Shown: positions 5,790 through 60,536, counted from the stretch's first letter. The stretch: 64,000 nt of DNA from Octopus vulgaris (GCA_951406725.2 OX597819.1:70184001-70248000); one strand, 5' to 3'. Numbers and translations are program-made. The notes: generated by a model from the sequence alone, not told the origin.

Positions 5790-6170
5790 CTACATTGTTT
5801 ACATTATTTACATTTGACAGATATTTGTCCTCATCTTGTTTGTTGTTAACACGTTTTGGCTGATATACCCTCCAGCCTTCATCAGGTGTCTTGGGGAAAT
5901 TTCGAACCTGGGTTCTCATTCCTAAGGTATTTTTTGATATTATTATTATTATTCAGGTCATTGCCTGGAATCAAACTCGGAATCTTGGGGTTAGTAGCCC
6001 GTACTCTTAACCACTATGCCATATGCCCATGGGGCATATGGCATAGTGGTTAAGAGTTAATAATGATAATAATAATATCAAAAAATACCTTAGGAATGAG
6101 AACCCAGGTTCAAAATTTCCCCAAGACACCTGATGAAGGCTGGAGGGTATATCAGCTGAAACATGTTAAC
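5790..6170. mobile_element. Inverted dimer of a small element: tRNA-like head plus hammerhead-ribozyme relic
   Basis: Palindrome centred ~6030. Minus arm has A box TGGCATAGTGG and B box GAGTTTGATTCC. gacac-CTGATGA-aggctg..cagc(c/t)-(G/A)AAA-c-(g/a)tgtt occurs at 5848-5890 (-) and 6125-6167 (+). Confidence 0.75.
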
Positions 6171-6580
6171 AGGTGCAGGCATGGCTGTGTGGTAAGTAGC
6201 TTGCTTACCAAGCACACGGTTCCGGGTTCAGTCCCACTGCGTGGCACCTTGGGCAAGAGTCTTCTATTATAGCCTCGGGCTGACCTAAACCTTGTGAGTG
6301 GATTTGGTAGATGGAAACTGAAAGAAGCCTGTCGTATATATATATGTATATATATATATATAAATATGCATGCATATGTTTATGTGTCTGTGTTTGTCCC
6401 CCAACATCGCTTGTCAACCGATGGTGGCGTGTTTACGTCCCCGTAACATAGTGCTTCGGCAAAAGAGACTGATAGAATAAGTACTAGGCTTACAAAGAAT
6501 AAGTCCTGGGGTCGATTTGTTCGACTAAAGGCAGTGCTCCAGCTTGGCCGCAGTCAAATGACTGAAACAAGTAAAAGAGT
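6171..6580 (+). mobile_element. tRNA-derived CORE-like SINE (family A), full length. Other copies at ~10440(+), 10760(-), 12141(+), 20885(+), 26375(+), 27583(+), 28325(-), 35480(-), 37357(+), 45050(+), 46910(+), 49711(+), 53187(+), 55520(-), 60740(-), 63595(-)
   Basis: A/B-box-like head (tggctgtgtggtaag; gggttcagtccc), CORE-like ccttgggcaagt, internal TA/TG microsatellite, 3' ...gactgaaacaagtaaaaga; more than 20 copies or fragments in the window. Confidence 0.9.
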
Positions 6581-7250
6581 ATTCATTTCAGTACAAATAC
6601 CAAACCAGAGAGAAAGGCTCTTCTACATCGTTGTAGGCCATCTTAAGATTAATATTGACCCTGAGATTGGGAGTAGTTGTTTTTTTTTCAGTCATACCAC
6701 AAAATGAAAATGGAAAATTATCATAATTGGTATTTAAAAAATAGGGTTGGGAGGAGAATTAAACATTTAAAAAGCTGTTTTGTTAGTAAATCTGTGAAAA
6801 TCTTTCATTAGAAACGTAAGAACCCAAGAAAAAAAAAACATTTTTAAAAGACAAAATAGTAGGTGTCTGCCTATTTGATACGTCCATCAGGGAAGTGTCA
6901 ATGTGTATTGATATTCTCACTTTCATTTTCGGTTAATAAAACGAAAGAACATCTGCCCGAACTAAATCATACATCGACAGCAAATCAGAATATACATAGA
7001 TTAGCTTGGGCTCATTACATCCGTTGGAACCCTGGTCAAATGCCCTGCGAACCTACCTTAAAATGACAAAGCACTGGTGATTAACTTACTAGAAACAGAA
7101 AATCGAATCTCCTTTATATCACACCAATTGAACTAAGTTCGATAGAGTTCAAATTAAGTTTCCGTTGAACCTGTGGAGTGCATTGTTAATGCTGAGGATG
7201 TTTAAACTTGTTACTTCCTGATCTGCTTAAGTACCTTAAAGATTACACAC

Positions 7251-7287
<37 letters not shown>

Positions 7288-7520
7288 TCGCGTGTGAGTC
7301 GAATCAATATAAATGATATTGGTTATTGATTGGTATAATAATTTCTGGTTAGCTTTTTAATGCTCCCTTCAAAACGCTATTAGTAACCACACGCATACGT
7401 ACAAATATATAGATGCCTACATGAATCTCTACGCATACACGCGTATATACACACACACACGTACAAAACCATTCCCGCGCGCGCACACGCACACACACAC
7501 ACTTATATATATATATATAT

Positions 7521-7693
7521 ACTTTATTTAAAGCAGCAGAAAGTTCTACAAAACCTGTTACTCTGAGTTTCGCGAAACTCAGAGTAACAGGTTTTGTAGA
7601 ATTTTCTGCTGCTTTAAATAAAGCATATTACTCTACCACTGGTATTTGAGTACTCTTTTTTTCCACCTTGTTTCACATTTATGTGTTTACTCC

Positions 7694-7695
<2 letters not shown>
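7521..7695. mobile_element. Palindromic Penelope-type pLTR fragment carrying the 3' half of a hammerhead (same family as 13265-13508)
   Basis: Near-perfect palindrome centred on tttcgcgaaa (~7572); GAAA-ctcagag-TA-acag followed by aataaa. Confidence 0.7.
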
Positions 7696-7744
<49 letters not shown>

Positions 7745-7786
7745 GTAACACTCGCGCACAGTAGTGAATTCACTGAATCACCCACA

Positions 7787-7850
<64 letters not shown>

Positions 7851-8655: not shown

Positions 8656-8688
<33 letters not shown>

Positions 8689-12344: not shown

Positions 12345-13251
12345 GAGTGAAGCAAGGAGATACAATCTCCCCAAAACTTTTCACTGCATGTCTCGAACAG
12401 ATCATCAGAGACATCGAATGGCAAGGTGGTGTCAACATCAATGGCGAGCTCCTCACTCACCTCCGTTTCGCTGACGACATCGTATTCATCGCTGAAAACA
12501 TGGATCAGCTTCAGACCATGCTGACGGAGCTCGACATCAAAAGTTCTGCAGTAGGTCTCAAGATGAATGGCATGAAAACAAAGTTCATGCGGTCAGACAA
12601 CGTACCAACAGGTCGAATGGTGATCGGCAGTGATGAAATAGAGGAGGTGAGAGAATATGTCTACCTGGGACAGGAAGTAAATATGTGCCGGGATATCAAA
12701 AAGGAGATCTCACGGAGAGTAAGGGCCGGATGGAAGGCGTTCAATGACATAAGGGATGTGCTCAAGGGAAGGTTGGACAGGACCACCTGCGCCAACCTCA
12801 TTAACAGTGCAGTTCTGCCTGCAATGTTATATGGTAGTGAAACATGGGCTACCACAAAGAGAGAAGAGCAAAGACTGATAACGGATCAAAGAGCCATGGA
12901 AAGTCAATGCTTGGTATCTCGTTGAGAGAGCACATAAATAGCAACATCATCAGAAAGAAGTCCGGCGTGAGAGATGTCATCGCAGAGTATACTCGCAGCA
13001 AGTATAGATGGGCTGGACACGTCGCCCGGCTCACCGATAATCGGTGGACGCACGCAGTTGTCGAGTGGTACCCGCGTGAGCGGAAAAGACCACCCGGAAG
13101 ACCTCCACGACGGTGGAGTGACGATTTCAAGAGGACGATTGAGATCATGTGGATGAGAAAGGCGCGATCCAGAGAGGAGTGGACAGCGTGCTGTGACCAG
13201 CGGTATCAAATGGACGCCTGACGGACTGGTCGGTCAAAGTGATCAAAGTGA
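12345..13251 (+). mobile_element. Young 5'-truncated RTE LINE (RT domain to 3' end) with one frameshift near 12900, inserted in the (TA)n of a SINE
   Basis: QGDTISPKLF, LRFADDIV, EYVYLG, LYGSETW, WAGHVAR and KRPPGRPPRRW motifs; 3' tandem tcaaagtga x2. Confidence 0.95.
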
Positions 13252-13264
13252 TATATATATATAT

Positions 13265-13508
13265 ATTCCGGACTAAACACATAAATGTGAAACAAGGTGG
13301 AAAAAAGAGTACTCAAATACCAGTGGTAGAGTAATATGCTTTATTCAAAGCAGCAGAAAATTCAACAAAACCTGTTACTCTGAGTTTCCCGTTGCCGTTC
13401 ATCGGACAGTTTTTGCCTGTTACTCTGAGTTTCCCGTTGCCGGCAACGGGAAACTCAGAGTAACAGAGTAACAGGTTTTGTTGAATTTTCTGCTGCTTTA
13501 AATAAAGT
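13265..13508. mobile_element. Penelope-type pLTR fragment with hammerhead variant and fold-back duplication
   Basis: Minus strand 13372-13409 reads ctgt-CCGATGA-acg gcaa cgg-GAAA-ctcagag-TA-acag; inverted duplication centred at 13441. Confidence 0.7.
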
Positions 13509-15442
13509 ATATATAAGGTCTGCCGTAGACAATATGTCTTTTTTTTTTTGTGGGGTCCGAAGGCTGGAAACGGAAGGGTGCCCCGAGCGGAACACATTCT
13601 AGCTACGCCAGTGGACCGAGTAGAAAGCACCTCTGGCGAGCGCACTTCGTACTAAATACGGATAGTTTTAGTTTCAGTTCCGCTGCGCAGCACTTAGGCA
13701 AGTGTTTTCTACCACAGACCCCGGTTAACCAATGCATTGTAAGTAGATTTGGTAGACAGAAACTGCGTGGAAGCCCATCATGTATAACAAGCCACTCCCA
13801 CTTCCCCCAGTCAGTGGCAGATGCAAGGGCATTGCTCTAGTTGCCCAGGCAAACACTCTTTCTAGCCGAGCCGACACCAAAATAATCGGGGCCAAGGATT
13901 TTCGGGCAGCTGTTTCATATGCATGTGATCTGCTACAACAAAGTTAAAATACATAAAGATGTGTCCATTTGTTACGAATTGCGATTCCTGTCTTATATAG
14001 TCTTTTTTTCGAAACTTTTGGGCAACACCCCACCAAAAAAAATCCTGGATCCCCCTCTGCCAGTAGCCATATAAATTTTCCACCGACCCCAGGAGGTGGT
14101 ACCACCCACTCTGGGAAACACCTGTTTATTTCATTAAACATATTGTAGCTGTGTTAGTTAAACATGTTGAATAATTAATGAGAGAAACAACTACTTTTGA
14201 TAATGTTTATTAATAACACTAAACGTTTTAAATATGCATTACGTATAATTTGTTATATCCTTTGTTGTGTGTGCTAATCACGAAATAATGAAATAGTCAA
14301 CGGAGGCGAGGTGAACAGTGTCATATAAATTAAAAACATTGTGTTCGGTTACATCAGAATTAATGTCTTATGGGGAAAATTGAAGGACGAAGAATATTTT
14401 ATTAAACGTGAATCTAAAGATACATAACCATGACACATGGCCACCGGCTGCTATAAGTAAAGTTACTGTGGAGAGTTAAATTTCAGGGTTTTGATAAGCC
14501 CACCAAAAGGTTCCAAAATGTCTCATGAAGTCTTTAAGCGCGAAAATTAATCTTATCTTTTTGTCTGTCAACGCCTGTCAAAAATCTGATGTAAAAAAAT
14601 GATTGATTGGGCAAATGTCAATAGGTATTACAGGAGTGGAACCAAAATAATTCTAGTCAACGTTAGCAGATATTGTAATCTAAGTGGCCAGCGGTTTCAC
14701 TTTCGAACTTCAATATTCCAGGTTCGAATTCAAGGAAAGCTATCTGCTAAAATACAAAAACAACTTCTGTCTTTCATAGCCAACCCAGGAACGTCTATGC
14801 AACAGCTCGACTTAATAAAAATAGCACCAGATCATATATAGTTCTAGATACATTATGTCTGAGAAAAAAGACGATATGGTCACAGACAGGCTTTCATAAT
14901 AGGTCCATAAGAACTTTTAAAAGTGAAAGGCATCATTACGAACCTTTCACATTCGTGTATATTTCCCCTGCGCCCTAACAGCTATACGGGCTTATTACTG
15001 CAAGTGCCGCCTCCATAAAAGCGTTTCCCGGGCGGATTGCTTCAATTCCCTACACCATAGTTATGCTAGTTATGTCTCGTTTGCGACCGAAGCTACACAT
15101 CGAGGACTGAGATATGCAGTCATTAAGGAGTCACAATTGAAGAATAGTGTCGTCGTTGAACTTGATGAACAACTATAAACAAACAAGCAAGTTAGCTGGA
15201 TCAGTGCTGGCTCAGGGCTAAACAATAACAACCTTTGATTACTCACTTAAAATCTTCTGAGAGACAATTGTCTGACGCAAGTAGCAGCCAGTTTTTGTTG
15301 TTTCCCAACATTTGTCAGTTTAGGGAAAATATCTCCAATGGCTTTTTCATCCATGTATTGTGTGTCAACGTTTAAAACAATGCCGTGTAATGTTTCGTTT
15401 TTCTGTTGTAATCTTTTATTTTCATATATAACATACAAACAT

Positions 15443-19478: not shown

Positions 19479-19582
19479 TAATTAAGGGTACTAACAAGCA
19501 GTACCAACATGCTAAATATAGCAATCATTTTGACTGCTGTATTTAGCATATGCCAGTACTGCTTGTTAGTATCCTTAATTAT
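19479..19582. repeat. Fold-back inverted repeat (~45-bp arms), apparently related to the 5160-5568 element
   Basis: taattaagggtactaacaagcagtac / gtactgcttgttagtatccttaatta; flanked by (TA)n. Confidence 0.85.
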
Positions 19583-20244
19583 TAAATGATAATTTTTTAC
19601 CGTTATGGGTCTTTTACATATGCTAAGCCATTCATATTGTAAACAATAATATCCTCACATCTATCTATATATATATATATGTGTGTATGTATGTATGTGT
19701 GTGTGCATATATATATATATATACATACATTGGGATTCTTTCAGTTCTCGTCTGCCAAATCCACTCACAAGGGTTTGGTCAGCCCAAGGCTATAGTAGAG
19801 GACACCTACCAAGGTGCCATATATATATATATATATATATATATCATGTATATATATCATTATCATCCATATATGTTTGTGTGTGTTTATATGTTTATAT
19901 ATTAAATTGTGATGATGATTTTAAATAGATAGATAGATAGATACACAGATAGTCCTTATAAAATTAAATTAATAGGATACTGGGCAAACATCAATATCTT
20001 TATCATCATCATTGACATAGTCGTCAGCTTAAGATTACTCAGACAAATATGCACCCACCCACCCACACACACACACCTTCAGCATACACCAGGTTTGTCA
20101 CATCTGCGGTGGATTACAATAATGTTTGTAATAGCATTAACAGTGCTGTAGGATGATGTGGAGGAGGGAGGGCATGGTTAAGTGTTGTTGCTTCTGTTGT
20201 CGTTCTTGTGACTATAGTAACAACAATTAATGTATCTGCTTCTC

Positions 20245-22262: not shown

Positions 22263-22296
<34 letters not shown>

Positions 22297-22578
22297 TAAA
22301 CAGTAAAAATAATTACAGACATGGACAAGAACATGAAACACCACAGAGACGACACAAGAACCACAGGACGGGACATTCGAAGCCCTCAGTCATCAGTCAA
22401 GAACCAGATCATCTTAGCAATTTCGGCTGATTAATCTTGAGATTGCTCCGATATGGGCAGCCCATATATATATATATATATATTCTTTTACTTGTTTCAG
22501 TTATTTGACCGTGGCCATGATGGAGCATCACCTTTTGATTCTAAACCTAGCTTCCACACCCTAAATTTCTTTTCTAGA

Positions 22579-22624
<46 letters not shown>

Positions 22625-22726
22625 TCTAGTAATGGTAAGAAAACAAAAGAATGAATGAGACCTTGATATTATGTAAATAAAGGAATTTATCTGTAATATA
22701 ATATGTGACAATTATTCGGTTGCCAT

Positions 22727-22787
22727 AATAAGACTCCAAGTTTCGGATGTTGGGGAGAAAAACTGCTCCGGTATTTTGTCAGTTATC
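22727..22787 (-). ncRNA. Degenerate type I hammerhead ribozyme
   Basis: gataa-CTGACAA-...gga..tcc-GAAA-cttggag-TC-ttatt; helix I pairs, G8 mutated. Confidence 0.45.
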
Positions 22788-22796: not shown

Positions 22797-23549
22797 AAAA
22801 AAGAGCATTTAATCAGATGTTGTGTGCAAGAGAGACGTTTGCACTGGTATGGTCATGTACTACAGATGGATGAGGAGAGATGTGTGAAGAAGTGCCACTC
22901 CCAAACAGTAGAAGGAATCCAAGGGCATGGTAGACATAGGAAGACATGGGGTGAGGTGGTCAAGCATGACCTTCGAACACTGGGCCTCACAGAGGCAATG
23001 ACGAAAGACCAAGATCTCTGGAGATATGCTGTGACTGCAAAGACCCGACAAATAACTTGAGTTCATAGTTGTTTCCTGCACCAGATTCGCATAGCAGCCC
23101 CAGCCCATCCAAAGTGTCTTGGATTGCAGAACGACCTGCTGTGCTTACCTTGGATTGTAGGGTGACCTGCTGTGCTTGAGGAGACCTATTGAGTCAAGTA
23201 CATCAACATCAAAATAAATATCAAATGGAAATTATAGTTGTGACACCTGTGCTGGTGGCATGTAAAAAGCACTATCCAAACGTGGCCAATGCCAGTGCTG
23301 CCTTCACTTGCTTCCGTGCCGGTGGCACGTAAAAAGCACCAACCAATCGTGGCCGCTGCCAGCTTTCCCTGGCACGTAAAAATCACCCACTACATTCACA
23401 GTGTGGTTGGCGTTAGGAAGGGCATCCAGCTGTAGAAACACTGCCAGATCAAACTGGAGCCTGGTGCAGCCTCCTGGCTTCCCAGACCCCAGTTGAACTG
23501 TCCAACCCGTGCTAGCACAGAAAACGGACGTTAAGCGATGATGATGATG
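22797..23549 (+). mobile_element. RTE LINE 3' fragment with long structured 3' UTR (same family as 2870-3967). Tails also at 4130, 18765, 24805, 34555, 36305, 43757, 45808, 57975, 59258, 62550, 63135
   Basis: RRLHWYGHVLQMDEERCVKK..RKTW..WR motif; gtggcacgtaaaaagcacc repeats; (gat)n end. Confidence 0.88.
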
Positions 23550-24577
23550 CATATGCTTGTCGTAAAATCTCAAGAAGAGATCAGAGTAGTAACTATAATA
23601 ACAAGTAAAGACAATCACCACATCAAAATGGCTGCTCCATGTTACTACTAATTTAACCCCAGGCAGATTGTCTCCCAGCTGGTTATCAGTGCTATGCTGC
23701 GCCTTTTATATACAATACATATTGTTAGCAGAGGGAGCAAACACCTACCATCTTCTAACAGACACCAGGATTGTGAGACTGACTCAGTTTCAAGCTGCTT
23801 GGCTCATCCTCAGTCACAAACACCCTGTCACCAGAGCAATAGCCAAGGTCTGCTCTCCAGCCAGCGATATATTGTAAACAAAGTGACCACCGGTCACTGA
23901 TTTGCAGGCTTCATTCAGTTTCTGTCTATTAACTCTACTTGCAAGGCTTTGGTCAGTCCAGAACGACAACAGAAGACATTTGTTCAAAATGCCACGCAGT
24001 GGGACTGAACCCCACACCACATGATTAGGAAGCAAACTTCTTAACCACACATCCACACCTACACATTTTTTTTATCACTTATAATTTCTAAAGTTGAGAA
24101 AAAAAATTTCACATTGGCCTATTTTGTAAAAAAGATATTCTATTCCTACCAACAAGAATATAATGACCTGTGTTGTATATTTAATTAGTGTTGGTAATTG
24201 GGTTATCTAATTAAGATTATTATTATTTGGGTAGTCTAATTAAGGAAGGGTGTCTTCATTTTTTGTTGATAAGTGAAATAACATCATTGCGTTGTAATTA
24301 TAATTTTTGTTATCAAAACTTAAAATAGTAATATTTAAAACAATGACATAGATTTCCCTACATCTGATATGTTGGCATGGCAACAAGCTGGCAGAATCAT
24401 TACCATACCAGAAAGAGTGCTTAGCGGTATTTCTTCTGGTTCTGAATTCAAATGCAGTCCAGGTCAACTCTGCCTTTCGTCCATTTGGGCATGATGAAAT
24501 AAGTACCAGTTGAGCATTTGCATTGATGTAATTAACTTTGCTCCTCCCCTCAAAAACTTGTGCCATAATTCCAAGAA

Positions 24578-27330: not shown

Positions 27331-27388
27331 CATGTATGGAAAAAAACACAAAAGAGAAAATGCTAAAATAATTTTATAAAAAACATTT

Positions 27389-27424
27389 CAGTACCAGTTT
27401 CGGTCATTGAGACTTTTTCAGCTG
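27389..27424 (-). ncRNA. Minimal type I hammerhead-like motif (C3/A8 core mismatch)
   Basis: cag-CTGAAAA-agtc tcaat gacc-GAAA-ctgg-TA-ctg. Confidence 0.5.
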
Positions 27425-27754
27425 TAAGTATGGAAGACAATTAAATTTGGGAAAAATTAAATAAAAAGTATTTTAAAAGAATGTTTGCATAGTATTCAAA
27501 TACAAGGGGCATTTTCCTTGTTTCTGCCTGCTTCTGTCTCTCTTGTTTACTCTTGTTGGTAACATATGGTAGAATTATAAACAGGCGCAGGAGTGGCTAT
27601 GTTGTAAGTAGCTTTTTTACCAACCACATGGTTCCGGGTTCAGTCCCACTGCATGGCACCTTGGGCAAGCGTCTTCTACTATAGCCTCGGGCCGACCAAA
27701 GCCTTGTGAGTGGATTTGGTAGACGGAAACTGAAAGAAGCCCGTCGTATATATG

Positions 27755-28049: not shown

Positions 28050-28090
28050 CCTTAATTGATCTTCAAACCTTACAGGGTTCTCATCAGAGG
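28050..28090 (-). ncRNA. Type I hammerhead relic (GAAA->GAAG)
   Basis: cct-CTGATGA-gaacc ctgtaa ggttt-GAAG-atcaat-TA-agg. Confidence 0.55.
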
Positions 28091-28268
28091 CATCTACATC
28101 ATTCTGTCAGTCTTCAGAGAAACAGGCAGCCAAACTGTTTATATACTCAACAAATGCATTAGTTACTCTATGAAGGAGTTCCTAATTTGCATACTGAAAG
28201 TGTTTAACACTCTATAAATACCAGTGGCCTGTCAGCAGGGATCTTTGTTCACATAGTATCAAGGTATG

Positions 28269-31033: not shown

Positions 31034-31079
31034 CTGCAAAGATAAAAGAAAAAAAGAAATAAGTAAAACAGATAACTAG

Positions 31080-37547: not shown

Positions 37548-38565
37548 TGTATGTGTGTATGTATGTATTTGTGTGTCTGTGTTTGTCCCCCCACCATCGC
37601 TTCACAACCAATGTTGGTGTATTTATGTCCTCGTAATTTAGCGGTTCGGCAAAAGAGACCGATAGAATAAGCACTAGGCTTACAAAGAAGAAGTCCTGGG
37701 GTTGATTTGTTCAACTAAAGGTGGTGCTCCAGCATGGCTGCAGTCTAATGACTGAAAAGAATAAAATAATATATATATATATATATATATGTATATTCAT
37801 AGGTGCAGGAGTACTTAGAGTAAAAAGAATAGATACCTATACACACACATACATACATACATGCACACAAATACTTACATACACACACATGCATACATAT
37901 GTACAAACAAACATACATTCATACATATACACATGCATACATACACATACGTACATGCATATATACATACATACACATATACACACCTACATACACATAC
38001 ATACACACATACATACATACATACATACATACATGCATATATACATACATACACATATTCACACACCTGCATACACACACACACATACATACATACATAC
38101 ATACATACATACATACATACATACGTACATACATACATACATAAATACATACATACTCGCATGCATACACACGCATTGATACACACACACACACGCACAC
38201 AGACACACAGAGTTAAATACGATACAAGTGAAAACCCTGTATTATGCAAAGCTCATCCAGAGTTATTGGCTACCTAATGTCATCATTAAGTGAAAATGCT
38301 TCTGCTATTGAATATACATCAGGAATTTCATAGCATCCATAGCAATTATATAAATAGATAAACAATATAAAATGGAATGAAGGACATAGCTTATTTACAG
38401 TCACTACAATTGTTTCAACACATTTTTACATCTGTATTATATTGGTGAGATGTTATGTAATCATACATACACGTATGATTGCATGTATGTATATAAATTT
38501 ATATTAGCTGACTCTTATATGCACTAAGTCACTCACGGGTACTGACTTATACATAAATATGCGTG

Positions 38566-40239: not shown

Positions 40240-42640
40240 CTCCAATGTTATATATATTTCAAAGGGAATATTCTAAAGACATAGTATTTCTATAATTCTT
40301 TTCATTTTGGCATTAAATCTGTTATCATTCCTGCAACAAAAATCAAATGGCTACATGCTAGGGTCTGCAGCTGTTAGAGATATTAATGTATCTCATAATT
40401 CCTTTGTGAATAACCTGAAGATTTATGCTAAACATGTTAGCAATGCCAAAAAAACGGATGGAATTAGACAACATTTTTCAGCTGAAATAGGAATGGAATT
40501 TGACCAAAAGAAATGTTTGTATTTGATTGTTGAACATGAAAAATCCATCCCCCAGACCCAAAACCTGTACATCAAAAGCCTTACTATCTCTCCTGTTCCA
40601 CTCAAAGAATGCTACAAATACAAATGCTGTGAATAAAAATGAATAGTACTATACCAGACTTCAGAAAATATGGCACTTGAAAATCTCCCCTTACAACAAG
40701 ACAATATTCCACAATGCATTTGCAGTATCAGTGTTGATTCTAATATTTGGAATACTAGACAGATCTGTTGAGGAAATCCACACCATTGACATCAGGACAC
40801 ACAAGATCCTGATATAAACTGGACATTTCCATACAAATTGTGATATTGACAGGCTCTACTTAGCAAGAGATAAAGTGGGTAGAGGCTGGATATCTATGCA
40901 GACAGCCTTCGAATGGCATATAGTCTCTCTCTCTCCAGAGAAACAACAGCAAAAATAAACTAACATTAACTTGATGTGCTGCAAAGTGGTGAGAACAATA
41001 TCTTAAGTGCTGGAAGTGAGCTCTTCAGAAAACACTCTCTTCTTGATGACCTCCCATACAACCGCAAAACAGCTGGACTAAAATACTTCAGAGAAGGCCT
41101 AGATTTGAAATGCTTAGCATTCCAATAAAAGACCATGCATGGATATGCTTCCCAACTTACAAATTTTGGCACAAGGCCAGAAATTTGGGTGTGGGTGGTA
41201 AGTTGATTACATCAACCCCAGTACTCAACTGGTACTTATTTAATCAGCCCCAAAAGGATGAATGACAAAGTCAACTTCAGTGAAATTTGAGCTCAGAAAA
41301 TAGTCAGTCAAAATGCTGCAAAGCATCTAGCCTGATGTGCTAATGATACTACCAACTCACCACGTTAGAAAAAGGTTATATTCTTTTCTACTCTAGGCAC
41401 AAGGACCAAAATTTTGTGGGAGGAGGCCAGTCAACTAGATCGACCCTAGTATGCAACTGGTACTTAATTTATCGATCCAGAAAGGATGAAAGGCAAAGTT
41501 GACCTCAGCAGAATTTGAACTCAGAACATAAAGACAGACGAAATACTGCTAAGCATTTCATCCAGTGTGCTAACATTTCTGCCAGGTCGCTGCTTTAGAA
41601 GATGGTTATATTAACAAAAAGTGCATCCTTCTTGGACTTGTGACCACTACATCACATCACACTTCAAAGGCTACCCATTTGCAATCAAAGATCAAGAGAT
41701 TGTTATTAAATACCTAATCAACAAAAAAGATAGTGAAGCCCTCAAAGATACAACCAAAAATGTAGATTAAGTCATATTTTTGTGGAAGACATCTCACATG
41801 GGATTATCAGCTGTATAAAGATATTATCCAGGTATTACTTCCTTATGCAACATGATGTCATTACCAAAACAATATACAGGGTTATTCAAAATTAAAGAGC
41901 AGATTTCAAATTTATTTTTCAAACAAACAGTAAGAGACTCAAACACATTCTATATATTTCTTGATCGAGGAAGGTTTAAAGTTTATAGCTGAACATGATC
42001 AATTGAATTAAGCCTTAAATAAAATAATATTCTAATTTTGTTTTAATGTTGCATTTTGTTCATTTTATTTAAAGTTGGATAATTTTCATTTGTGTAATCC
42101 TTTAGAAAATGGCAATGCTACAAGAAAAGTCTTTTTGTGTGCAGCAGTTTAAGAAATGTGAATCGATTGTGCAAGTGCAACATGAATTTCACCACCAATT
42201 CAATAAAAATCCACCTCATCACAAGCAAATTTACGAATGGCATAAAAATTTCACAGAAAAAGGTTTCGATGTTTGTCAAGCAACACATGGTGCTCATGCT
42301 GAGTGCATATTACCTTAAAATAAACTTTAAACCTTCCCCTATCAAGAAATATGTAGAATGTGTTTGTGTCTCTTACTCCTTGTTTTAAAAATAAATTTAA
42401 AATCTGCTCTTTCATTTTGAATAACCCTGTATAATGCCATTCAAAATAAAGACTCTTCCTGACATAAATGCAGAGAATCCAACTACTATTGAATACATAC
42501 ACTAACATCAAACAAGAAATATTGGAGAAAATCCCCAACAAGTGACCAAGGAAGATGTGGCACAGTACATAATGGGACAACATGATAGCAATGGGTGTTG
42601 GCCCAAGTGGGGCCAGAAGGAAAGTGAGCAATCAGGATGT
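40240..42640 (+). mobile_element. Degenerate R4/Dong-like LINE (RT and CCHC/RLE region) interrupted by SINEs and a Tc1/mariner element
   Basis: LALNLLS..VSHNSFVNNLKIYA..FSAEIGMEFDQKKC (RT); EDISH..SC..HDVITKTIY|NAI continues across the 41877-42429 insertion. Confidence 0.75.
41877..42429 (+). mobile_element. Tc1/mariner-superfamily internal-deletion derivative with ~110-bp TIRs and TA TSD
   Basis: ta|cagggttattcaaaa...ttttgaataaccctg|ta; HTH N-terminus (QEKSFCV..ESIVQVQHEF..PP..IYEW) fused to C-terminal CQATHGAH. Confidence 0.92.
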
Positions 42641-44090
42641 GTGGAGAAGGTTCATTGTCTGTTGAGCTAACAATGCTGGAGGAAGTAAGAGCTAAGAACA
42701 CTACACTTAAATTACGCAAAATTATTCGTAAACAACTAACAAATACAAGTGTTACCAGTTGAAAGCTTTGCATATCAGACATTAGTAGGCCTATGGGGTC
42801 ATCAGAAGAGAATGCATGCCATTTCAGGTTCTTCCTTGCAATGGCATTATTACTGAGATGAGGCCCTGCTTCCTGGATCAACAGGTTCCTGGACTTCTCT
42901 TGATATTCTTCAAGCCATTGCTCATCGTCACTTCCCGATTTTGTAATACTCAGCCAAACTTCATCCCTACACCACACACACACGCGCTTGCACATATGCA
43001 CACATTTATGTACACACACACATGCTCATACATACACACTTTCATGCACATGTGCATACTCACACACATGCTCACACACACACACACACACACACACGTA
43101 CGCACACACACACACGTACGCACACACCAACACTCACGCACACACACGCACACTCATACTCACAAGCATACACATATATGGTGATGCTAACAACTATAAT
43201 GGTGACACTATTATTGCTACTGCTGAGGCTGCTGCTGCTACACCTACTACTACTACTTACTACAACAACTGTTCCACAACAACTGTTCCTGCTGCTACTA
43301 CTTCTAACACCAGAACCCCAACTACTACTTCTGCTGCTGCTGCTACCACTCCTACCACCACCACTACTACTACCACCACCACTACCCCAAAACTGCTGCT
43401 ACTACTACTACTACAATGCCACTTGATGAATGGACTCCTTTACAAAATAACAAACATAAAAAACATCGCTTGATCATACAAGTGTAGACATTTTGAAGCA
43501 GAGGAAGGAAACCAGTCAGCACTTCCTACCTCGACCAACCCCACCTACATATGATGTCAATACCACCACCACTATTACTACTACTACTTCCATCACCACT
43601 ATCGCCACCTATGCGATTGCCTGCCTTCATTTCACTCACTCGTGATAATTGAATCACTATTGACTTAAATGCATTGAAACTGTGGTTCACACCTTTCTCA
43701 TTTGTATGTTGCATGCACACATGCATACACATGCATAGATCAGTCCATATATATACCATCATCATCATTGTTTAACGTCTGCTTTTCATGCTGGCATGGG
43801 TTGGACGGTTTGACTAAAGGCTGGCAAGCCAGAAGGCTGCACCAGGCTTCAATCTGATCTGGCAAAGTTTCAACAGCTGGATGCCTTTCCTAAAGCCAAC
43901 CACTCCAAGAGTGTTGTGGGTGGTTTTTACATTCCACTGGCACAAGGGCCAGTCAGGTGGTACTAGCATCGACCATGCTTGAATGGTACTTTTTACGTGC
44001 CACCGGCATGGGAGCCAGTCAGGCGGCACTGACAATAACCATGCTTGAATGATGCTTTTTTACGTGCCACCGGTGCTTATATATATATAT

Positions 44091-44516
44091 TAACCAGCTA
44101 GAGGAGATGTCATCTTGGGGTTAAAAAATTGCTGTAGAGTCCACTCAAAGGACAGCCATGTTAAAGTGGCTACCAACATTGCTTATCAGTACAGCGTTGA
44201 TCTCTTAGAGAGATTTTAGGACTAGTACAGTGACTGTGTGTTAGTTTGAAATATATATATATTGCGTGTAGAAGCGAGCAGCTATCATCTCTAGTAGACA
44301 AGGGATCCAGTACTGAGAAATGGCAGAAATAGCCTAAAACCAGGCCTGGTCTACTGGTTCCATCATTAGGAGATGGTTGGGGTTTGGTCCCCTGCTCGCA
44401 GTTTTATCGGATGCAGCTGTGCATCATTAACCAGCTTGAGGAGATGTCCTCTTGGGGTTAAAATATCACAGCAGAGTTTGCTCAAACAGCTAGCTATGTT
44501 AAAGTGGCTACAACTA
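44091..44516 (+). mobile_element. Retrozyme-like element: 337-bp monomer plus ~88-bp terminal redundancy, containing a hammerhead relic (44303-44361)
   Basis: Direct repeats start at 44092 and 44429; ggatccagta-CTGAGAA-atggc..gcct-AAAA-ccaggcctgg-TC-tactggttcc; (TA)n flanks. Confidence 0.7.
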
Positions 44517-45394
44517 TATATACAACTATATATATATATACTCTTTGTCACTCTTTTTACTTGTTTCAGTCATTTGACTGTGTCCATGCTGGAGCACCGC
44601 CTTTAGTCAAACGAATCAACCCCAGGACTTATTCTGTGTAAGGTGAGGGTTGGTGACAGGAAGGGCATCGGGTTGTAGAAAATCAGTCTCAACAAATTCC
44701 ATCTGACCCATACAAACATAGAAAAGTGGAAGTTAAATGATAATGATCACCAGCCCATTTCACACACATATCATCTGCCTTTCCTCTCAGATCCGAAACT
44801 AAACTCTTTCTTTAATCTTTCTTTCCTAAAATCTGCCAATTCTTCAAAATTCCATTTCCCCCCAGACATCAACTTACAGAAGTTTAGCCCTTTAGCATTT
44901 AAACCAGCCATATTCGATTCAAATATTCAACTTGGCCAGATCTTACTTCTCGTGCCTACCCTATAATGTTATTCTAATAATATACAATCACATCATCAAA
45001 TTTTCAAAGCTACAAGATGATATATGATTAATTCAAAAGAATGTAAATGGTTCAGTCCTACTGCATGGCACCTTGGGCTAGTAGCTTCTTCTATAGCCTT
45101 GCGCCAACCAAAGCCTCATCACTGTATTTGGTAGATAGAAACTGAAAGAAGCCTGTCGTGTGTGTGTGTGTGTGTGTGTATTTGTGTGTGTGTTTGTCTC
45201 TCCCACAATTGCTTGACAACCGGTACTGGTGTGTTTATGACGCCATAACTTAGCGGTTCAGCAAAAGGGACCAATAGAATAAGTTCTAGGCTTACCAAGA
45301 GTAAGTCCTGGGGTCAATATCTTCAACTAAAAGTGGTGCTCCAGCATGGATGCAGTCAAATGACTGAAAGAAGTAAAAGAATAAAAGAATACAC

Positions 45395-45765: not shown

Positions 45766-46250
45766 GCAATATGTTTGACAAATGCTGGAGGGTTAAATTA
45801 AATATCATCACCATCATTTGACATCCGTTTTCCATGCTGGCATGGGTTGGACAGTTCAACTTGGGCCTGGGAAGCCAGGAGGCTGCACCAGGCACCAGTC
45901 TGATCTAGCAGTGTTTCTACAGCTGCATGCCCTTCCTAACGCCAACGACTCAGAGAGTGTAGTGGATGCTTTTTATGTGCCACTGGCACAGGGGCCAGAG
46001 GAGCTAACTACATGAAGCTTATCTGTCTATGAAGAATTATTAACATCATGAGTGCCACTCTGTTTTACCAAACTAACTTCTAAGCAAATTCATTAGTTGC
46101 TATGGAATCCAATAATTCAACTTTTTTACAGAATAAGAAATGAAACAAACCGCGTAAAATTCCTTCAGGACAAAAAATGTATGAAAAAGAAACGATAAAA
46201 CAGGTTGGATAAATGAAAGACACACAAAAAAGAAAAAAGAAAGCAAAGGA

Positions 46251-46316
46251 CCACTGATGAGGTCACAGATGTGTGATGAAAAAACTCTGGCCGAAATACG
46301 ATTAATATAAAATAAA
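46251..46316 (+). ncRNA. Partial hammerhead-like motif
   Basis: CTGATGA-ggtcacag..ctctggcc-GAAA followed by aataaa; helices I and III not recoverable. Confidence 0.35.
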
Positions 46317-50212: not shown

Positions 50213-50302
50213 TTTCGGTACAATTGTTTCGTACGAAGACCAGCTTTATTAAGGCTGCAAATATTGCAGTAAATATAAGTGACCCGTACTCATCAGCCGA
50301 AA
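50213..50302 (-). ncRNA. Intact type I hammerhead ribozyme with canonical core
   Basis: tttcgg-CTGATGA-gtacg[49 nt]cgtac-GAAA-caattg-TA^ccgaaa: helix I 6/6 bp, helix II 5/5 bp, palindromic helix III, GUA cleavage triplet. Confidence 0.85.
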
Positions 50303-50876
50303 AAACATCTGAGTTCTCCAAACATCTAAGAGGGTGTGGTTACACTCCTGAAACATCAGGGATAGTTCTATAAAAATCAGATTTAGATAACAAACGGACT
50401 TCCAAAGCTCTTTAATGTTGTACAGTCATATAACAGGTCTTAAAAAAGTATTTTAAAAAACCTTTTAGTTTGCCAGAAAATGAAAATGTAAATCCATCCA
50501 TATTGAAGTAAGTTTGATTTCTGGAGATATGAGGAGAGATTTCATACTCACAGACTATGCATTTATCCATAATTATATATATATATGCATATATGGGAAC
50601 AGGACGTCACCAACAGTTCAAACAATATGAAATACATAAACAACATAGTTAATGGAAAACTCAACAAGTAAATACAGAGAAAGAACCCTTCATCAGTTGT
50701 TGGCTGTCTGTCTACTCCTCATTTCGAACATTCAACAACAATATGAGTCTTCAAAGACAGTTGCTCCCGTAAATTCTAAAATAAAATTTAGGATTTATGG
50801 AGGACCAAAGTTGGGAACAAAAACATGACAGTACACACACACATGCTACACGGAGAAGGGAATAGAGAAGAGATCG

Positions 50877-51199: not shown

Positions 51200-51416
51200 T
51201 ATAAAAATTTGTTTTCTGTAATGAGATAAAAAACCAAGGCTGTGAAAATTTTAGAATATTTATAAATAGAAGGTCTTACAGCTGTTTCTAGGATATTTAT
51301 TATATCTCTTCATTATCTCCAATGAAGGGATATAATATCCTAGAAACAGCTGTAAGACCCATTTATAAATGTTCTAAAATCTACACAACCTTGGTTTTTT
51401 ATCTCATTACGGAAAA

Positions 51417-51427: not shown

Positions 51428-51454
<27 letters not shown>

Positions 51455-51774
51455 TGACCACTAGCTACTAAAGCTTTCTTTTTATATTCTCTCCCCATTT
51501 ATTTTCTCATGTTCCTTTCTGTTGAAGAGCGTAGGCTCAAAACAGAAAAGACTTTCTCACCTTTCTGAGTATTAAACTAATACACCTGTTTGTTGTTTAT
51601 GCACCTGTCTTAGTCTTTTGTTTTTTGTAAATTTCAACTATATATAGACAGACAGACAGATACATACATACATACATATGTATATATATACATACATATA
51701 TATGTATATATATACATATATATGTATATATATACATATATATGTGTGTGTGTATATATATATACATATATATG

Positions 51775-56140: not shown

Positions 56141-56187
<47 letters not shown>

Positions 56188-56998: not shown

Positions 56999-57300
56999 TT
57001 TCACAACACCACTTGTTAATCATTCTGGGTAACTATTGTTCACTATTATAATTTCAGTATTACTACTATAATCCCTATCTTATTTACTAGTTCACTACAA
57101 TATTTTCACAATTATTGCTATAAGGCCGAGGGATCCTAATATTGTCTCCCCTGATTTCTTTAGACAACAAATGATGGCAGACTCATGACTGCTGCTGACG
57201 TTGAGGTGTTAAAGGGAGGAGCAGATCTGTGACTATCAACAGAGGCTGTTTGATTGGACTGCTACATGACATAGCTGACAGTCACTTTAGATCAGGTGGG

Positions 57301-57882
57301 TGAGAATTTTAAGAGTATCTTTGGCAAGTTGGGACTAACTATCATAGCTAAGATATTGACATTTATAAACAACATCTTACAGTTTTAAGAAACCATATAG
57401 TATTCTATTTATAAACCCTTCATTGTATTTAAGATTATAATGTCTATAAAACATAACCATTTCAAAGTTTAGGTAGTACTAGAAATAGCTTACTTGTTTT
57501 TTTTGGGGGGGACCTGTTAAGTGACCATGTCATTGTTTGAATGATTTCAGCAGCACTGAGAACCCATTGGAAGAGGAGAGAGAGAAAAAGGACACAAAGA
57601 GGGGGGCAGGCAAGCTCACCAAAATTCCATGTTGGCGAATTTATGTATAGATTTTGTGGGGAGGACCTAGCATAGATAAGATATGGAAATTTATGAAATT
57701 TTAAAGAGTATCTTGAGCAAGTTGGGATTATCATAGCTAGGATATCAAAGTTTATAGACAACATCTTACAGTTTTAAGAAGCCATGTAGTATTCTGTCTA
57801 TAAACCCTTCATCATATTTAAGAATATAATGTCTATAAACATAACCATCTCAAAGTTTAAGTAAACCTAGAAAGTACTAGAA
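57301..57882. repeat. Diverged direct repeat pair (~185 bp, period ~390)
   Basis: aagagtatctt..gcaagttggga..tatcatagcta.gatat..caacatcttacagttttaagaa..taaacccttcat..aaccat.tcaaagttta occurs twice. Confidence 0.85.
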
Positions 57883-58855
57883 AAAAAATTAAAGAAAACC
57901 AACCCATTACTTGTCTTAACCGCCAATGGAAAGTTTTAACAGGTACCCTCGCAGGGAAAATATATATGCTCCTTGCAGAGCATGATTGTTGCCAGGGCCT
58001 CTGACTGGCTCCCATGCCAGTGGCACATAAAAAGCACCATTCAAGCATGATCGTTGCCAGCATCACATTACTGGCACATGTGCCGTTGGCACCTGAAAAG
58101 CATCTGAGCATAGTCATTACCAGTGCTGCCAGACTGGCTCCTGTGCAAGTGGCACATAAAAACACCATTTGTGAGTGACTATTGTCTGTACTGCCTGACT
58201 GGCCCTCGTGCTGGTGACACATAAAAGCACCCACTACACTCATGGAGTGGTTGGTGTTAGGAAGGGCATCCAGCTGTAGAAATTTTGCCATCTAACCCAT
58301 GCCAACATGAAAGCGGACATTAAATGACGACGACAATGATGATGATGATTATTATCATCATTATCATTAGGCGGCGAATTGGCAGAAACGTTAGCACGCC
58401 AGGTGAAATGCTTAGTGGTATTTTGTCTGTCTTTATGTTCTTAGTTCAAATTCCATTGAGGTTGACTTTGCCTTTCATCCTTTCAGGGTTGATAAATTAA
58501 GTACCAGTTGAGCACTGGAGTTGATCTAATCGACTGGACCCACCTCCCCAAAACTTTTAGGCCTTGTGCCTAGCGTAGAAAAGATTATTATTATCATTAT
58601 TATTATAATTGTTGTTGTTGCTGCTGTTGTTATTAGTTGAGAGGGCAGCAAATATTATCAAAGTGACATTGAGGTACAAATATACGAAGCCCAACACACC
58701 CATCATGACTGCCCACTTGTCTGATAAGGGTGCACCAGGCTTATTCAGCACAACCATATGTGCATGACATGGTGACCTCATATCAAAATAAACAGCACAT
58801 GACGTTGCAGGTCAATTATTATTATTATTATTATTATCATTATTCATCATCATCA

Positions 58856-58904
<49 letters not shown>

Positions 58905-59619
58905 GGCTCTGTGTGTGTATAGTCATTAGAGCATTTGAGAAAATTTAATGAAGCAAAAATCTCTTTAAACTCAAGAAACTACTTGTATAATAAACTAGTG
59001 GTTTTCAATGTGTTAACATTACTGTCACACCCATAATTGTTGCTGTTGTTGCTGCTGCTGCTGATGTAGTTGTTATTTTCATCTTGAATTTTTGTGGACC
59101 TTAAGTCGACATGAAGAGATTTAATAAAAGCTATTTTTGTTATTTTCCTAATACTTCACACCAACACAACTACAGGGTTAAATTCAACATGCTTAGTAAA
59201 AGAGATATTTTCACACTCATGCACACAACTATCTACCTGTCTGTCTGTCTATATATCACCATCATCATCATCATCGTTTGATGTCTGTTTTCCATGCTGG
59301 CATGGGTTGGACGGTTTGACTGGGGTGTAGCAATGTTTCTACAGCTGGATGCTCTTCCTAATGCCAACCACTCCAAAAGTGTAGTGGGTGCATTTTACAT
59401 GGGAGCATTGGCCACGTTTGGATGGTGCTTTTTACATGTTACTGATACAGGAGCCAGTCTGAGTGGTGTGGCTGGCATCAGCCATGTTTGGATGGTGCTT
59501 TTTATGTGCCACTGATACAGGAGCCAATCAGGACAAGGGGGCTGGCATCGGATGCATTCGGATGGTGCTTTTTATGTGCCACTGGCAGCCTCATTTAGCG
59601 CAAGTGAGCCATCATCCAT

Positions 59620-60322
59620 GCGAACATATTTCTCTCCTACAACATCACGATTTTCTCTCACACACTATCTTGCAACACGAAATACCTCAAATCTTTGGTT
59701 CTCATGGTGCAGAACATTGGCAATTTTTTTCTTATCTGCTTCCCCTCTGGTTAAATAAACTTGCCCCCTAGCTTCCCTTCTGGCAGTCTGATACAATTCC
59801 CTGCTACCACCCTTCTTCCAGTCCTTCCAAGCCTGTTTCTTTTCTCTAATAGCCCTGTCAATAACATTGTTCCACCACCACGTTATTTTGGGTTAAGAGG
59901 GAACTTTGCACCATCCACAGATCTGGTCAGTGGCCCTTAGCAGGTTGTCCCATAGAAGCCTCCAGTTGTCTTCTACACCATGTGAAGCTATATCCCCTTC
60001 TATTTCGTCAAAGGCTTCGAGTAATATGTCTCTAAATCTCTATCCATTTGCAAGATCTTTAAGTCTCCAGACCCTTCTTCTCCTTGCTGGTCATCTTCTG
60101 GGCATCCATTTAGCCCTTATCCTGAAGTCACTAACTACCAGTCTATGTTGTGGGGTACATTCTTCGCCTGGGAAGCTTTTGGCATTTATAAGTAGCCATC
60201 TTTCTTTTTTTTCTGGTGAGGATGTAGTCAATTTGACTAGTGTGTCTGCCAGAGCAGTAGGTGACTAGGTGACTGGCAGGTTTTCTGAAGTTAATATTGC
60301 AGACCATAAGATCATTTGCATC

Positions 60323-60325
<3 letters not shown>
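59620..60325 (-). mobile_element. RTE LINE internal fragment (APE endonuclease C-terminus and linker)
   Basis: NDLMVCNINFRKPASHLVTYCSGRHTSQIDYIL; downstream WWN motif (tggtggaac). Confidence 0.85.
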
Positions 60326-60398
<73 letters not shown>

Positions 60399-60498
60399 TT
60401 GAAAAGATTTGTAGAGGTAACACACAAGTAAGTAGATATTTATGAAAAACAAGAACGAAAATACTACTTTCTTAAAATTGAGTACATTTTAATTTTCC

Positions 60499-60536
60499 TT
60501 TTACATGTTTCGGTTTTTGAAAAACCTTATCAAAAA
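60499..60536 (-). ncRNA. Minimal type I hammerhead with U3-A8 compensatory core
   Basis: ttt-TTGATAA-ggtttt tca aaaacc-GAAA-catg-TA-aaa. Confidence 0.6.

Follow-up and report, generated by a model that had tools for sequence, protein, structure and literature searches.

Decayed hammerhead motifs, Penelope-type insertion shapes and non-coding repeats in a 64-kb stretch of the Octopus vulgaris genome

A stretch of 64,000 nucleotides from Octopus vulgaris (GCA_951406725.2, OX597819.1:70184001-70248000; the window, with positions counted from its first letter) appears to contain many hammerhead-ribozyme motifs, which raises the question whether these are real and which mobile elements left them there. 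Minimal hammerheads are known from the pLTRs of metazoan Penelope-like elements (PLEs), where they show an extra nucleotide after A9, a G10.1-C11.1 pair, a palindromic helix III, high variability and opposite-strand pairs 100-700 bp apart (Cervera and De la Peña 2014, PMC4209133). Endonuclease-bearing (EN+) PLEs of the Hydra clade, to which Hydra-1_Obim of Octopus bimaculoides belongs, insert at (TA)n and have a hammerhead at their end; a tail on one side only and an inverted copy truncated at its 5' end are hallmarks of PLE insertion (Craig et al. 2021, PMC8557442). Animal non-LTR retrozymes have also been described (Cervera and de la Peña 2020, PMC7229834; Li, Clavereau and Pollet 2026, preprint 10.64898/2026.07.22.740005), among molluscs in a mussel (PMC7229834). 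Since hammerheads in PLEs and retrozymes, TA targeting and high numbers have been published, one octopus Hydra element included, the headline of the original prediction, a dense set of about 15 independent ribozyme-bearing families near (TA)n tracts, is not new.

Motif census and insertion context

The 17 coordinates first proposed collapse to 15 insertion loci (Table 1), of which two are complete, nine are relics, three are halves and one, 22411, does not parse as a type I hammerhead. The relics (5848/6125, which is one insertion, 13372, 22727, 27389, 28050, 44303, 50708, 51316 and 51515) have three recognisable helices and one or two lesions in core or junction, and those at 22727, 27389 and 50708 are weak taken singly. 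Among the halves 7555 is real, 46254 retains the 5' two thirds and 38401 is at chance level. With a further motif at 23813(-), overlooked in the original prediction, the core (CUGANGA/GAAA/UH) and all three helices are complete at 3 of 16 loci, namely 50296, 23813 and 60533, as well as in the majority letters of family A described below; elsewhere they are degenerate, so that a number of some 15 working ribozymes is not supported.

Table 1 Features in the window (families labelled A, B and E/I)
Positions	Strand	Feature	Details
5790..6030	-	Family A copy of ~240 nt, almost full-length	tRNA-like head, (AAT)n linker, body, minimal hammerhead relic, 3' part
5956..6028	-	tRNA-like head of family A	A box at 6021; B box with one mismatch; ARAGORN pseudo-tRNA at 85% threshold
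6031..6171	+	Family A, inverted second arm, same insertion	Head without its 3' half; core 6130 and GAAA preserved; no cleavage site left
7520..7695	+	Family B, hammerhead 3' half and tail	Inverted truncated duplicate; between (TA)n tracts
13263..13512	-	Family B, whole hammerhead	Core 13405, U4>C; duplicate inverted and 5'-truncated; flanked on both sides by (TA)n
22296..22466	-	TA-flanked 170-bp unit	GAAA before CUGAUGA, no parse
22730..22786	-	Weak hammerhead relic	G8>A in core; helix III Hydra-like; (TA)n downstream at 128 nt
23556..23899	-	Family E/I monomer, ~344 bp	Intact hammerhead of canonical type, core 23813; 6-bp helix I and distal pairing
27388..27426	-	Weak hammerhead relic	G8>A in core; TA/CA tract downstream at 72 nt
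28051..28091	-	Hammerhead relic	No change in core 28087; A15.1>G; 5-bp helix II
38398..38420	-	3' half only (GAAA, palindrome, UA)	Indistinguishable from chance
44089..44517	+	Family E/I 1.25-mer	337-bp period, 86-bp terminal redundancy; between TA tracts; relic core 44313
46250..46300	+	5' two thirds of hammerhead	Core 46254, helix II 5 bp, GAAA; helices I and III absent
50213..50302	-	Intact type I hammerhead	Core 50296; 6-bp helix I; 7-bp helix II bearing a long insert; helix III palindromic
50688..50760	-	Weak hammerhead relic	Core 50754, then second CUGAUGA at 50696
51212..51416		Inverted pair, one hammerhead relic per arm	Two changes in right-arm core 51319; helix III palindromic; (TA)14 downstream
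51453..51640	+	TA-flanked 190-bp unit, minimal-hammerhead relic	A6>U and G12>A in core 51519; no cleavage site
60499..60536	-	Complete hammerhead, U3-A8 covariant core	Core 60533; helix I only 3 bp

The predicted enrichment is borne out by dinucleotide-shuffled controls. A strict type I descriptor, which asked for CUGANGA and GAAA without mismatch, no more than 1 nt following A9, minimum lengths of 4, 3 and 1 for helices I, II and III, and UH, gave two matches, 50296(-) and 23813(-). The 855 local shuffles averaged 0.015, and none of them reached two; core, helix II and GAAA together were found three times, against 0.21 in shuffles and equalled in 1 of the 855. A relaxed score, tuned after the sites had been seen, gave nine matches at 7 or above, as compared to 2.1±1.5 in shuffles (largest of 224 shuffles: 9) and two in the reversed sequence. 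Four of these nine (50296, 44313, 28087 and 60533) are at predicted loci and 23813 is one more, the remaining four (28585, 53775, 11353 and 19869) being noise-like. The U3-A8 variant at 60499 is a published one (PMC4209133), and a descriptor for it with the 3-bp helix I, written post hoc, was matched in 0.2% of 1604 shuffles. Taken by itself, the 3' half (GAAA-palindrome-UA/UC) shows no enrichment over chance, with 10 occurrences where 5.8 are expected, a number reached by 7% of shuffles. Rfam gave no support: there was no hammerhead among the 150 of 335 matches listed or in local scans, in which the hammerhead models returned no score. Folding of single motifs was no better than that of shuffles in 15 of 16 cases.

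The motifs are real, mostly decayed, and hammerhead-derived of PLE or retrozyme type, in many sequence-distinct families. They resemble the PLE hammerheads described in PMC4209133 in type I topology, the extra nucleotide after A9, the G10.1-C11.1 pair, palindromic helix III and the U3-A8 variant, and also in the occurrence of many variable families per genome, mostly as single copies, with opposite-strand pairs 100-700 bp apart; they differ in that no RT-EN ORF was found beside them and most copies are degenerate. Such features are seen directly in family A and at 51519 and 13405, and family A has all three of the extra nucleotide, the G10.1-C11.1 pair and a palindromic 15.2-16.2 or loop 3. 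Helix III palindromes, predicted as a recurrent trait, are present at 50213, 51316, 60499 and 44303, but the 'catg' at 6125 is a lesion peculiar to that copy. A transition at C11.1-G12 has occurred in 5 of the 11 loci with a G10.1-closed helix II. The density of intact motifs, ~31 per Mb (95% interval 4-113), does not support an exceptional status beside the ~38,500 candidates described for Schistosoma mansoni (PMC2770079).

The predicted association with (TA)n holds downstream, where a tract of (TA)≥4 lies within 200 nt of 10 of the 16 loci (null 0.18, binomial p 1e-4), a figure that is an upper bound because the loci were partly picked by a reader who had noticed TA; upstream such a tract is found at 6 of 16 (p 0.055). 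This adjacency is not specific to PLEs, since the RTE LINEs of the window likewise terminate in TA tracts. Hammerhead loci make up 4 of the 10 local inverted matches below 700 bp, with inverted 5'-truncated duplicates at 5844-6171, 7522-7623, 13334-13512 and 51212-51416. The Hydra-clade EN+ PLEs (PMC8557442) show the same combination of a (TA)n target, a hammerhead close to the 3' end, 5'-truncated copies in inverted position and a tail on one side, and from the shape of the insertions we infer mobilisation by a PLE reverse transcriptase. Pfam searches found no PLE reverse transcriptase or GIY-YIG domain in 415 of the 543 stop-free segments of at least 50 aa, and neither a motif scan nor a homolog search upstream of 50296 gave a PLE ORF remnant; the sole reverse transcriptase recognised in the window is an RTE-like LINE fragment (12347-12922). 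Such absence is expected if the copies are 5'-truncated. In view of the missing single RT and GIY-YIG ORF, the loci are not classed as autonomous PLEs.

Hydra-type ends and a retrozyme-like unit

At least three kinds of locus can be distinguished: ends with a hammerhead of Hydra-clade PLE design (7555/13372), a retrozyme-like unit (23813/44303) and a tRNA-headed SINE (5848/6125). In the first, family B, the half at 7555 is 95% identical to the 13372 family, and the motif at 13405 combines the helix I (CTGT/ACAG) of Hydra-2_Amil with the helix III of Penelope-3_HM (PMC8557442); an ACTC-N-GAGT helix III like that of family B was recognised by eye in 5 of 25 listed Hydra families. Both copies look like inverted, truncated 3' ends of a Hydra-clade PLE. 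No window locus matches the Hydra-1_Obim hammerhead, one match being at chance level; six of the window's motifs are absent from the supplement of PMC8557442, and no Hydra ORF was found.

Family E/I is an ORF-free unit of 337-344 bp, inside the 150-450 bp range taken for animal retrozymes. Its two copies align over one full period in shifted register (z=13), as in circular permutation, and share a tail-to-start junction (~62-66% identity) with no ORF between. Helix I is wholly changed and yet paired in both, which represents compensatory change. The ~340-bp size, type I hammerhead, 6-bp helix I with distal pairing, more-than-unit and permuted copies, and proposed PLE dependence are all as described for animal retrozymes (PMC7229834; preprint 10.64898/2026.07.22.740005), whereas a tandem of two or more complete hammerheads was not found in the window, only the monomer and the 1.25-mer. 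The family may be called retrozyme-like; in the literature no report of a cephalopod retrozyme was found.

A tRNA-headed repeat with a minimal hammerhead

Family A is short, non-coding and very high in copy number, with a fixed 5' end and a tRNA-like head carrying A and B boxes, which suggest that it is probably driven by Pol III. It is present in all four public runs (42,481, 40,828, 5,269 and 2,802 contigs), exceeding 40,000 contigs in each of the two DNA-type runs. Depth drops ~20-fold beyond 6033 with heterogeneous loose ends, which marks the 5' end as fixed, and in 4 of 4 runs head and hammerhead region lie on one contig without an ORF upstream. The majority letter at 5973 repairs the B-box mismatch, and with majority letters ARAGORN detects the head at a 90% instead of an 85% threshold (0 of 200 shuffles at 80% or 90%), a call that vanishes once the minority letter at 6017 is added; Rfam has no tRNA match for the head.

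In the window copy at 5790..6030(-) the hammerhead (core 5885) has G12>A and has lost 3 nt at the cleavage site. The majority letters of the public runs restore an intact minimal motif: G12 is the commonest letter in three of four runs (0.67-0.73; 0.47 in run X1), and loose ends at 5851/5852 supply three extra letters that restore UH and helix I. The 3' part of this copy stops at (CA)n/(TA)25, without the last ~30 nt of the family tail, and its second arm is directly adjoined by another tRNA-derived SINE. No target-site duplication is readable, the flanks being microsatellite, and no partner with a shared 3' tail was identified; the shape of the insertion is PLE-like. Inversions account for 9 of 15 among the joints listed (of 271), each backed by 1-3 contigs with short sides of 20-48 letters placed at 80% likeness and flagged unreliable. 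The inverted pieces duplicate the 3' end and abut the 5' start at six truncation points (5817, 5819, 5848, 5884, 5885 and 5908), and joints and loose ends, individually weak, indicate a one-sided tail and inverted duplicate in other copies. PLE-type inverted 3' duplicates with a one-sided tail are unlike the inversions produced by twin priming of LINEs.

The Schistosoma repeats Sm-alpha and Sj-alpha, also very high in copy number, likewise place a type I hammerhead behind a tRNA-related Pol III promoter (PMC2770079, PMC6765202). Sm-alpha is described there as often tandem and cleaving multimeric transcripts, whereas in family A the hammerhead is minimal, of PLE type and close to the 3' end, and the copies seem to be scattered, with inverted insertions of PLE type. 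From the PLE hammerheads of PMC4209133 it differs by the position of the motif behind a tRNA-like head. No hammerhead SINE with PLE-type insertions was found in the literature searched.

Origin of the motifs and implications

We consider it likely that the window records repeated insertion of EN+ PLEs, mostly as decayed 3' stubs, plus the non-coding riders E/I and A. Endonuclease-bearing PLEs (Hydra, Neptune or similar) would insert repeatedly, targeting (TA)n, and would bear a type I hammerhead ~50-150 nt from their 3' end. Because reverse transcription would begin at the RNA 3' end and usually halt early, most insertions would be short 3' stubs with a whole or half hammerhead, often with an inverted duplicate, and these would decay, the CpG at C11.1-G12 being a frequent site of change. 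The PLE machinery may also be exploited by short non-coding parasites whose 3' module is of this kind: E/I, a ~340-nt closed retrozyme-like unit whose template would have been circular or tandem, and A, a ~270-nt tRNA-headed SINE, probably transcribed by Pol III. The hammerhead of the source elements would most likely process precursor RNA as a dimer, most genomic copies being dead.

Chance matching in AT-rich, palindrome-rich repeat DNA does account for the number of halves, and may account for 38401 and 22411, perhaps for 22727, 27389 and 50708, besides the four noise-like relaxed matches; as a general explanation it is hardly credible given the strict-descriptor result, and for A, B, E, I and 50296 it is refuted, the family A motif being restored by majority letters and E/I having compensatory changes. 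It is quite improbable that every locus is the truncated 3' end of an autonomous PLE, with no independent non-autonomous families. That is the published view of most single minimal hammerheads (PMC4209133); PLEs are abundant in O. vulgaris, family B fits, and about nine loci, single copies without family consensus, cannot be told from such ends. It is contradicted for A by the fixed 5' end at the tRNA-like head, joined to the hammerhead in all runs, and for E/I by the common ORF-free junction. The original prediction in full, some 15 independent retrozyme-type families yielding circular RNAs through working hammerheads, is very improbable. The size and permutation of E/I, the circular fold of the E unit (z=-2.6) and the mussel retrozymes (PMC7229834) speak for it, but the I unit has z=-1.0 and four other units -1.2 to +1.2, few motifs are complete, four loci are inverted pairs rather than head-to-tail, and no locus has the two complete tandem hammerheads that define a retrozyme. 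Independence of all loci is unsupported because 7555/13372 resemble Hydra-type PLE 3' ends; at least two non-autonomous families do stand, at 5790-6170 and at 23556-23899/44089-44517.

For family A we give about even credence to a true SINE that unites a tRNA-derived Pol III head with a PLE-type 3' module and intact minimal hammerhead, amplified by a Penelope-like RT/GIY-YIG enzyme and not by a LINE. An ordinary LINE-dependent tRNA SINE, RTE-mobilised for example, with a captured PLE fragment and inversions of other origin, seems rather unlikely. Such SINEs and RTE LINEs dominate octopus genomes (PMC8967140), the inversion joints are singly weak and a partner PLE with a matching 3' end was not identified; however, the six truncation points at which inverted 3' duplicates abut the 5' start and the window copy without its tail at one end are PLE traits, and the majority hammerhead is intact.

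The ribozyme-bearing layer is not wholly missed by annotation, as had been supposed, since that of O. vulgaris lists 190 PLE families (6.83% of the genome) and 893 recently active unclassified SINE families; what is overlooked is probably the ribozyme, not the repeats themselves. The E/I pair is a covariation series supplied by nature, and the family is a candidate for the first retrozyme of a cephalopod. Less familiar is a very abundant tRNA-headed short repeat that bears a ribozyme and appears to insert Penelope-style. SINEs are taken to be LINE-dependent, and an abundant tRNA SINE with PLE footprints would, if true, widen this rule to PLEs. Part of the octopus 'unclassified SINE' mass would then be PLE-dependent, octopus PLEs would, with E/I, support several classes of non-coding parasites, and family A would provide a ~270-nt substrate for the question how PLE enzymes recognise their RNA and whether they need the hammerhead.

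Hammerhead motifs and their setting

With a type I hammerhead descriptor and dinucleotide shuffles in 200-nt blocks as control, the strict search gave two matches, at 50296(-) and 23813(-), against a shuffle mean of 0.015, and none of 855 shuffles reached two. The core with helix II and GAAA is present three times in the window (0.21 in shuffles; 1 of 855 equalled it). The 3' half alone occurs 10 times where 5.8 are expected and 7% of the shuffles had as many, so that halves on their own are no proof. The excess over shuffled controls that follows from the original prediction stands for the strict motifs and not for the 3' halves. A relaxed score of at least 7, tuned post hoc with the sites already known, yields nine matches versus 2.1 in shuffles; four of these had been predicted, one is the intact motif 23813, which had been missed, and the other four (28585, within a long ORF, 53775, 11353 and 19869) were discarded as noise. 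With the U3-A8 core variant described in PMC4209133, the 60499 locus (core at 60533) is complete, as occurs in 0.2% of 1604 shuffles with this post hoc descriptor. The 17 coordinates behind the claim of about 15 motifs represent 15 insertions: two with complete motifs (50213 and 60499), nine with relics, three with halves, and 22411, for which inspection by eye gave no consistent parse as a type I, type II or permuted hammerhead. A 170-bp TA-flanked unit at 22296-22466 (-) has GAAA before CUGAUGA and 5' and 3' parts that pair; possibly it is a structured RNA of a different kind.

Five of 11 loci have a lesion at the C11.1-G12 step, a clustering that would fit decay of a formerly conserved CpG. 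The Rfam check proposed with the prediction turned out negative: no hammerhead scored among the 150 of 335 matches listed or in further local scans, and the matches in the window are to microsatellite or hairpin miRNA models. On folding single motifs, only 51512-51555 gave z < -2, and its fold is not a hammerhead.

The predicted association with TA tracts holds downstream, where (TA) of at least 4 repeats lies within 200 nt at 10 of 16 loci (null 0.18, p 1e-4), and is weaker upstream, with only 6 of 16 loci (p 0.055); both figures are possibly inflated, as the loci were picked in the prediction itself. The window is AT-rich (GC 0.27-0.46) and dense with microsatellites and tRNA-derived SINEs, and ARAGORN at its default threshold calls no genes in it. 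Another A-box/B-box match, at 55486 (-), is probably the head of a further tRNA-derived SINE. Tandem arrays of 26-bp and 65-bp units (1871-2190, 34714-35412, 57979-58231, 63184-63427) appear to have a short motif in common across the window. An 895-codon stop-free low-complexity frame at 28388-31075 (-), with a 39-bp tandem repeat inside and no Pfam match, is probably a large host exon, and an HTH_DUF4817 fragment between 117-bp terminal inverted repeats (41870-42436) is probably a Tc1/mariner-type remnant.

Hammerhead-bearing families, single loci and SINE heads in the window
Feature	Position	Description
Family A	5790-6171	head-to-head insertion; predicted motifs 5848 and 6125 are its two arms
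Family B	7520-7695, 13263-13512	3' end and inverted truncated duplicate between TA tracts at both loci
Family E/I, unit E	23556-23899 (-)	paired with I by pairwise alignment
Family E/I, unit I	44089-44517 (+)	paired with E by pairwise alignment
Single-copy loci	22727, 27389, 28050, 46254, 50213, 50708, 51274/51316, 51515, 60499	without relatives in the window
Pseudo-tRNA heads of SINEs	6175, 11718, 15740	

A tRNA-headed SINE with a hammerhead

Both arms of family A begin with a tRNA-like head. ARAGORN recognises this head at a threshold of 85% in the unaltered window copy and at 90% once the majority letters are put in; none of 200 shuffles was called at 80% or 90%. Run in the same way on the window, it also picks up three other SINE heads, plus three matches that are probably noise. 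The call is gone once the minority letter at 6017 is added, and the Rfam tRNA model gives the head no score. Four public sequencing runs (X1, X3, X15 and X18) were searched with this family. Two DNA-type runs yielded 42,481 and 40,828 contigs and two others, guessed to be RNA, 5,269 and 2,802, which marks the family as very high-copy; these numbers do not give a copy number and do not demonstrate transcription.

G12 is restored by a letter with shares of 0.47, 0.67, 0.73 and 0.72 across the four runs, and the B box by one with shares of 0.74-0.83. In all four runs, the loose ends at 5851/5852 have three letters more than the window copy. With these, U16.1-H17 and helix I are complete again, so that the minimal hammerhead is intact in the majority form. 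Its H17 is U, as in many hammerheads in the table of Craig et al. 2021 (PMC8557442). Depth drops about 20-fold past 6033 and the loose ends there are heterogeneous, which fixes the 5' end at the tRNA-like head. Head and hammerhead region lie on one contig in the listed examples X18 5854-5996, X3 5864-5999 and X1 5891-6031, and an X15 contig (5916-6020) joins the head to the body. A tail of about 30 nt that is missing from the window copy is seen in the loose ends at 5800.

Among the 15 joints listed (271 in total), nine are inversions, and the 5' start at 6032-6034 is joined by six different truncation points. Since each joint is represented by 1-3 contigs and the short sides measure 20-48 letters, the joints are usable only taken together. 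Four of the 15 skip 35-48 nt over the hammerhead (5830-5887), which implies that it was lost or replaced in some copies. Judged from its sequence, we take family A to be a non-autonomous tRNA-headed SINE with a hammerhead, whose insertions look PLE-made (PLE, Penelope-like element). A precedent is Sm-alpha, in which a tRNA-type promoter precedes the hammerhead (PMC2770079, PMC6765202).

Closed units and probable element stubs

Units E and I are the top pair among 16 units (alignment z=13). I has a 337-bp period with 86-bp terminal redundancy and TA tracts on either side, and E matches the doubled I unit at positions 139-474, a full period in another register, with about 62-66% identity. The tail-to-start junction is the same in both units and neither has an ORF, so the unit is closed on itself; an autonomous element truncated at random would not produce one junction twice. 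Helix I has wholly changed in sequence between E and I with pairing kept, and circular folding gave z=-2.6 for E and only -1.0 for I. In its working, E/I would resemble the animal non-LTR retrozyme described in PMC7229834. Retrozymes are recognized by two complete tandem hammerheads in a preprint (10.64898/2026.07.22.740005); E/I lacks these and is thus called retrozyme-like only.

The two family B loci are 95% identical. Helix I is that of Hydra-2_Amil and helix III that of Penelope-3_HM, and ACTC-N-GAGT is, on comparison by eye, also present in 5 of 25 Hydra families (Craig et al. 2021, table; PMC8557442); the hammerhead carries U4>C, which may be copy-specific. The same source reports for Hydra-1_Obim of O. 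bimaculoides that it prefers (TA)n and has a hammerhead at its terminus, and describes one-sided tails and inverted 5'-truncated copies as PLE traits. Family B is best read as 3' stubs of PLEs of the Hydra type. It is adjoined by an RTE-like LINE 3' fragment at 12347-13250 (+) (Pfam RVT_1, E 1e-13), which has inserted into a SINE's TA tract and ends with a short repeat and (TA)n; a second RTE-like C-terminal fragment was seen by eye at about 22815-23060.

The single-copy loci may represent stubs, either of autonomous PLEs or of additional parasites. Remnants of PLE proteins were not detected by Pfam in 415 of 543 stop-free segments (128 low-complexity segments were removed first), by motif scan, or by homolog search upstream of 50296, and the sole RT in the window is RTE-like (12347-12922). 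The Hydra-1_Obim hammerhead motif has one 3-mismatch match, at 56303, which is at chance level (7 of 100 shuffles). Six window motifs are absent from the supplement of Craig et al. (PMC8557442), and pattern scans of public collections gave three metagenome matches of unrelated context and no viral ones. The 22727 unit has its 3' part repeated at 2786-2862, again beside TA repeats (76% similar to 22642-22715 over 79 bp). TA-flanked inverted pairs of PLE-like shape, without clear hammerhead, at 5242-5568 and 19481-19660, the latter with a one-sided tail, are possible further PLE-type 3' ends.

Possible mechanism and relation to known systems

Alongside the observed anatomy, motif enrichment and TA bias, the abundance and majority motif of family A and the permutation of E/I, the following course can be proposed. 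An endonuclease-bearing (EN+) PLE enzyme would carry out target-primed reverse transcription into (TA)n, starting at the 3' end of the RNA, and early termination with re-priming would produce stubs and inversions. In the source elements the hammerhead would cleave precursor RNA as a dimer, and family A would be transcribed by Pol III. Cleavage by minimal motifs is weak in vitro (PMC4209133), and 1 of 9 Xenopus hammerhead dimers was cleaved.

The window holds about 31 intact motifs per Mb (4-113), or about 190-220 including relics. Schistosoma mansoni has about 100 candidates per Mb, which leaves the very high density claimed in the original prediction unproven as a record. PMC2770079 gives about 38,500 BLAST candidates for that species, and PMC4209133 describes variable minimal hammerheads, in the thousands per genome and for the most part single and linked to truncated PLEs, as well as pairs on opposite strands. 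The O. vulgaris annotation lists PLEs (6.83%, 190 families) and 893 unclassified, recently active SINE families, and its supplement does not mention hammerhead or ribozyme. Within the literature searched, from which most subscription papers and Repbase fell outside, neither a tRNA SINE that combines a PLE minimal hammerhead with PLE-type inversions nor a cephalopod retrozyme was found, a silence that is a weak sign of novelty. The original observation is thus confirmed in part and its interpretation supported in part: the overall phenomenon is already known, and family A is a new variant.
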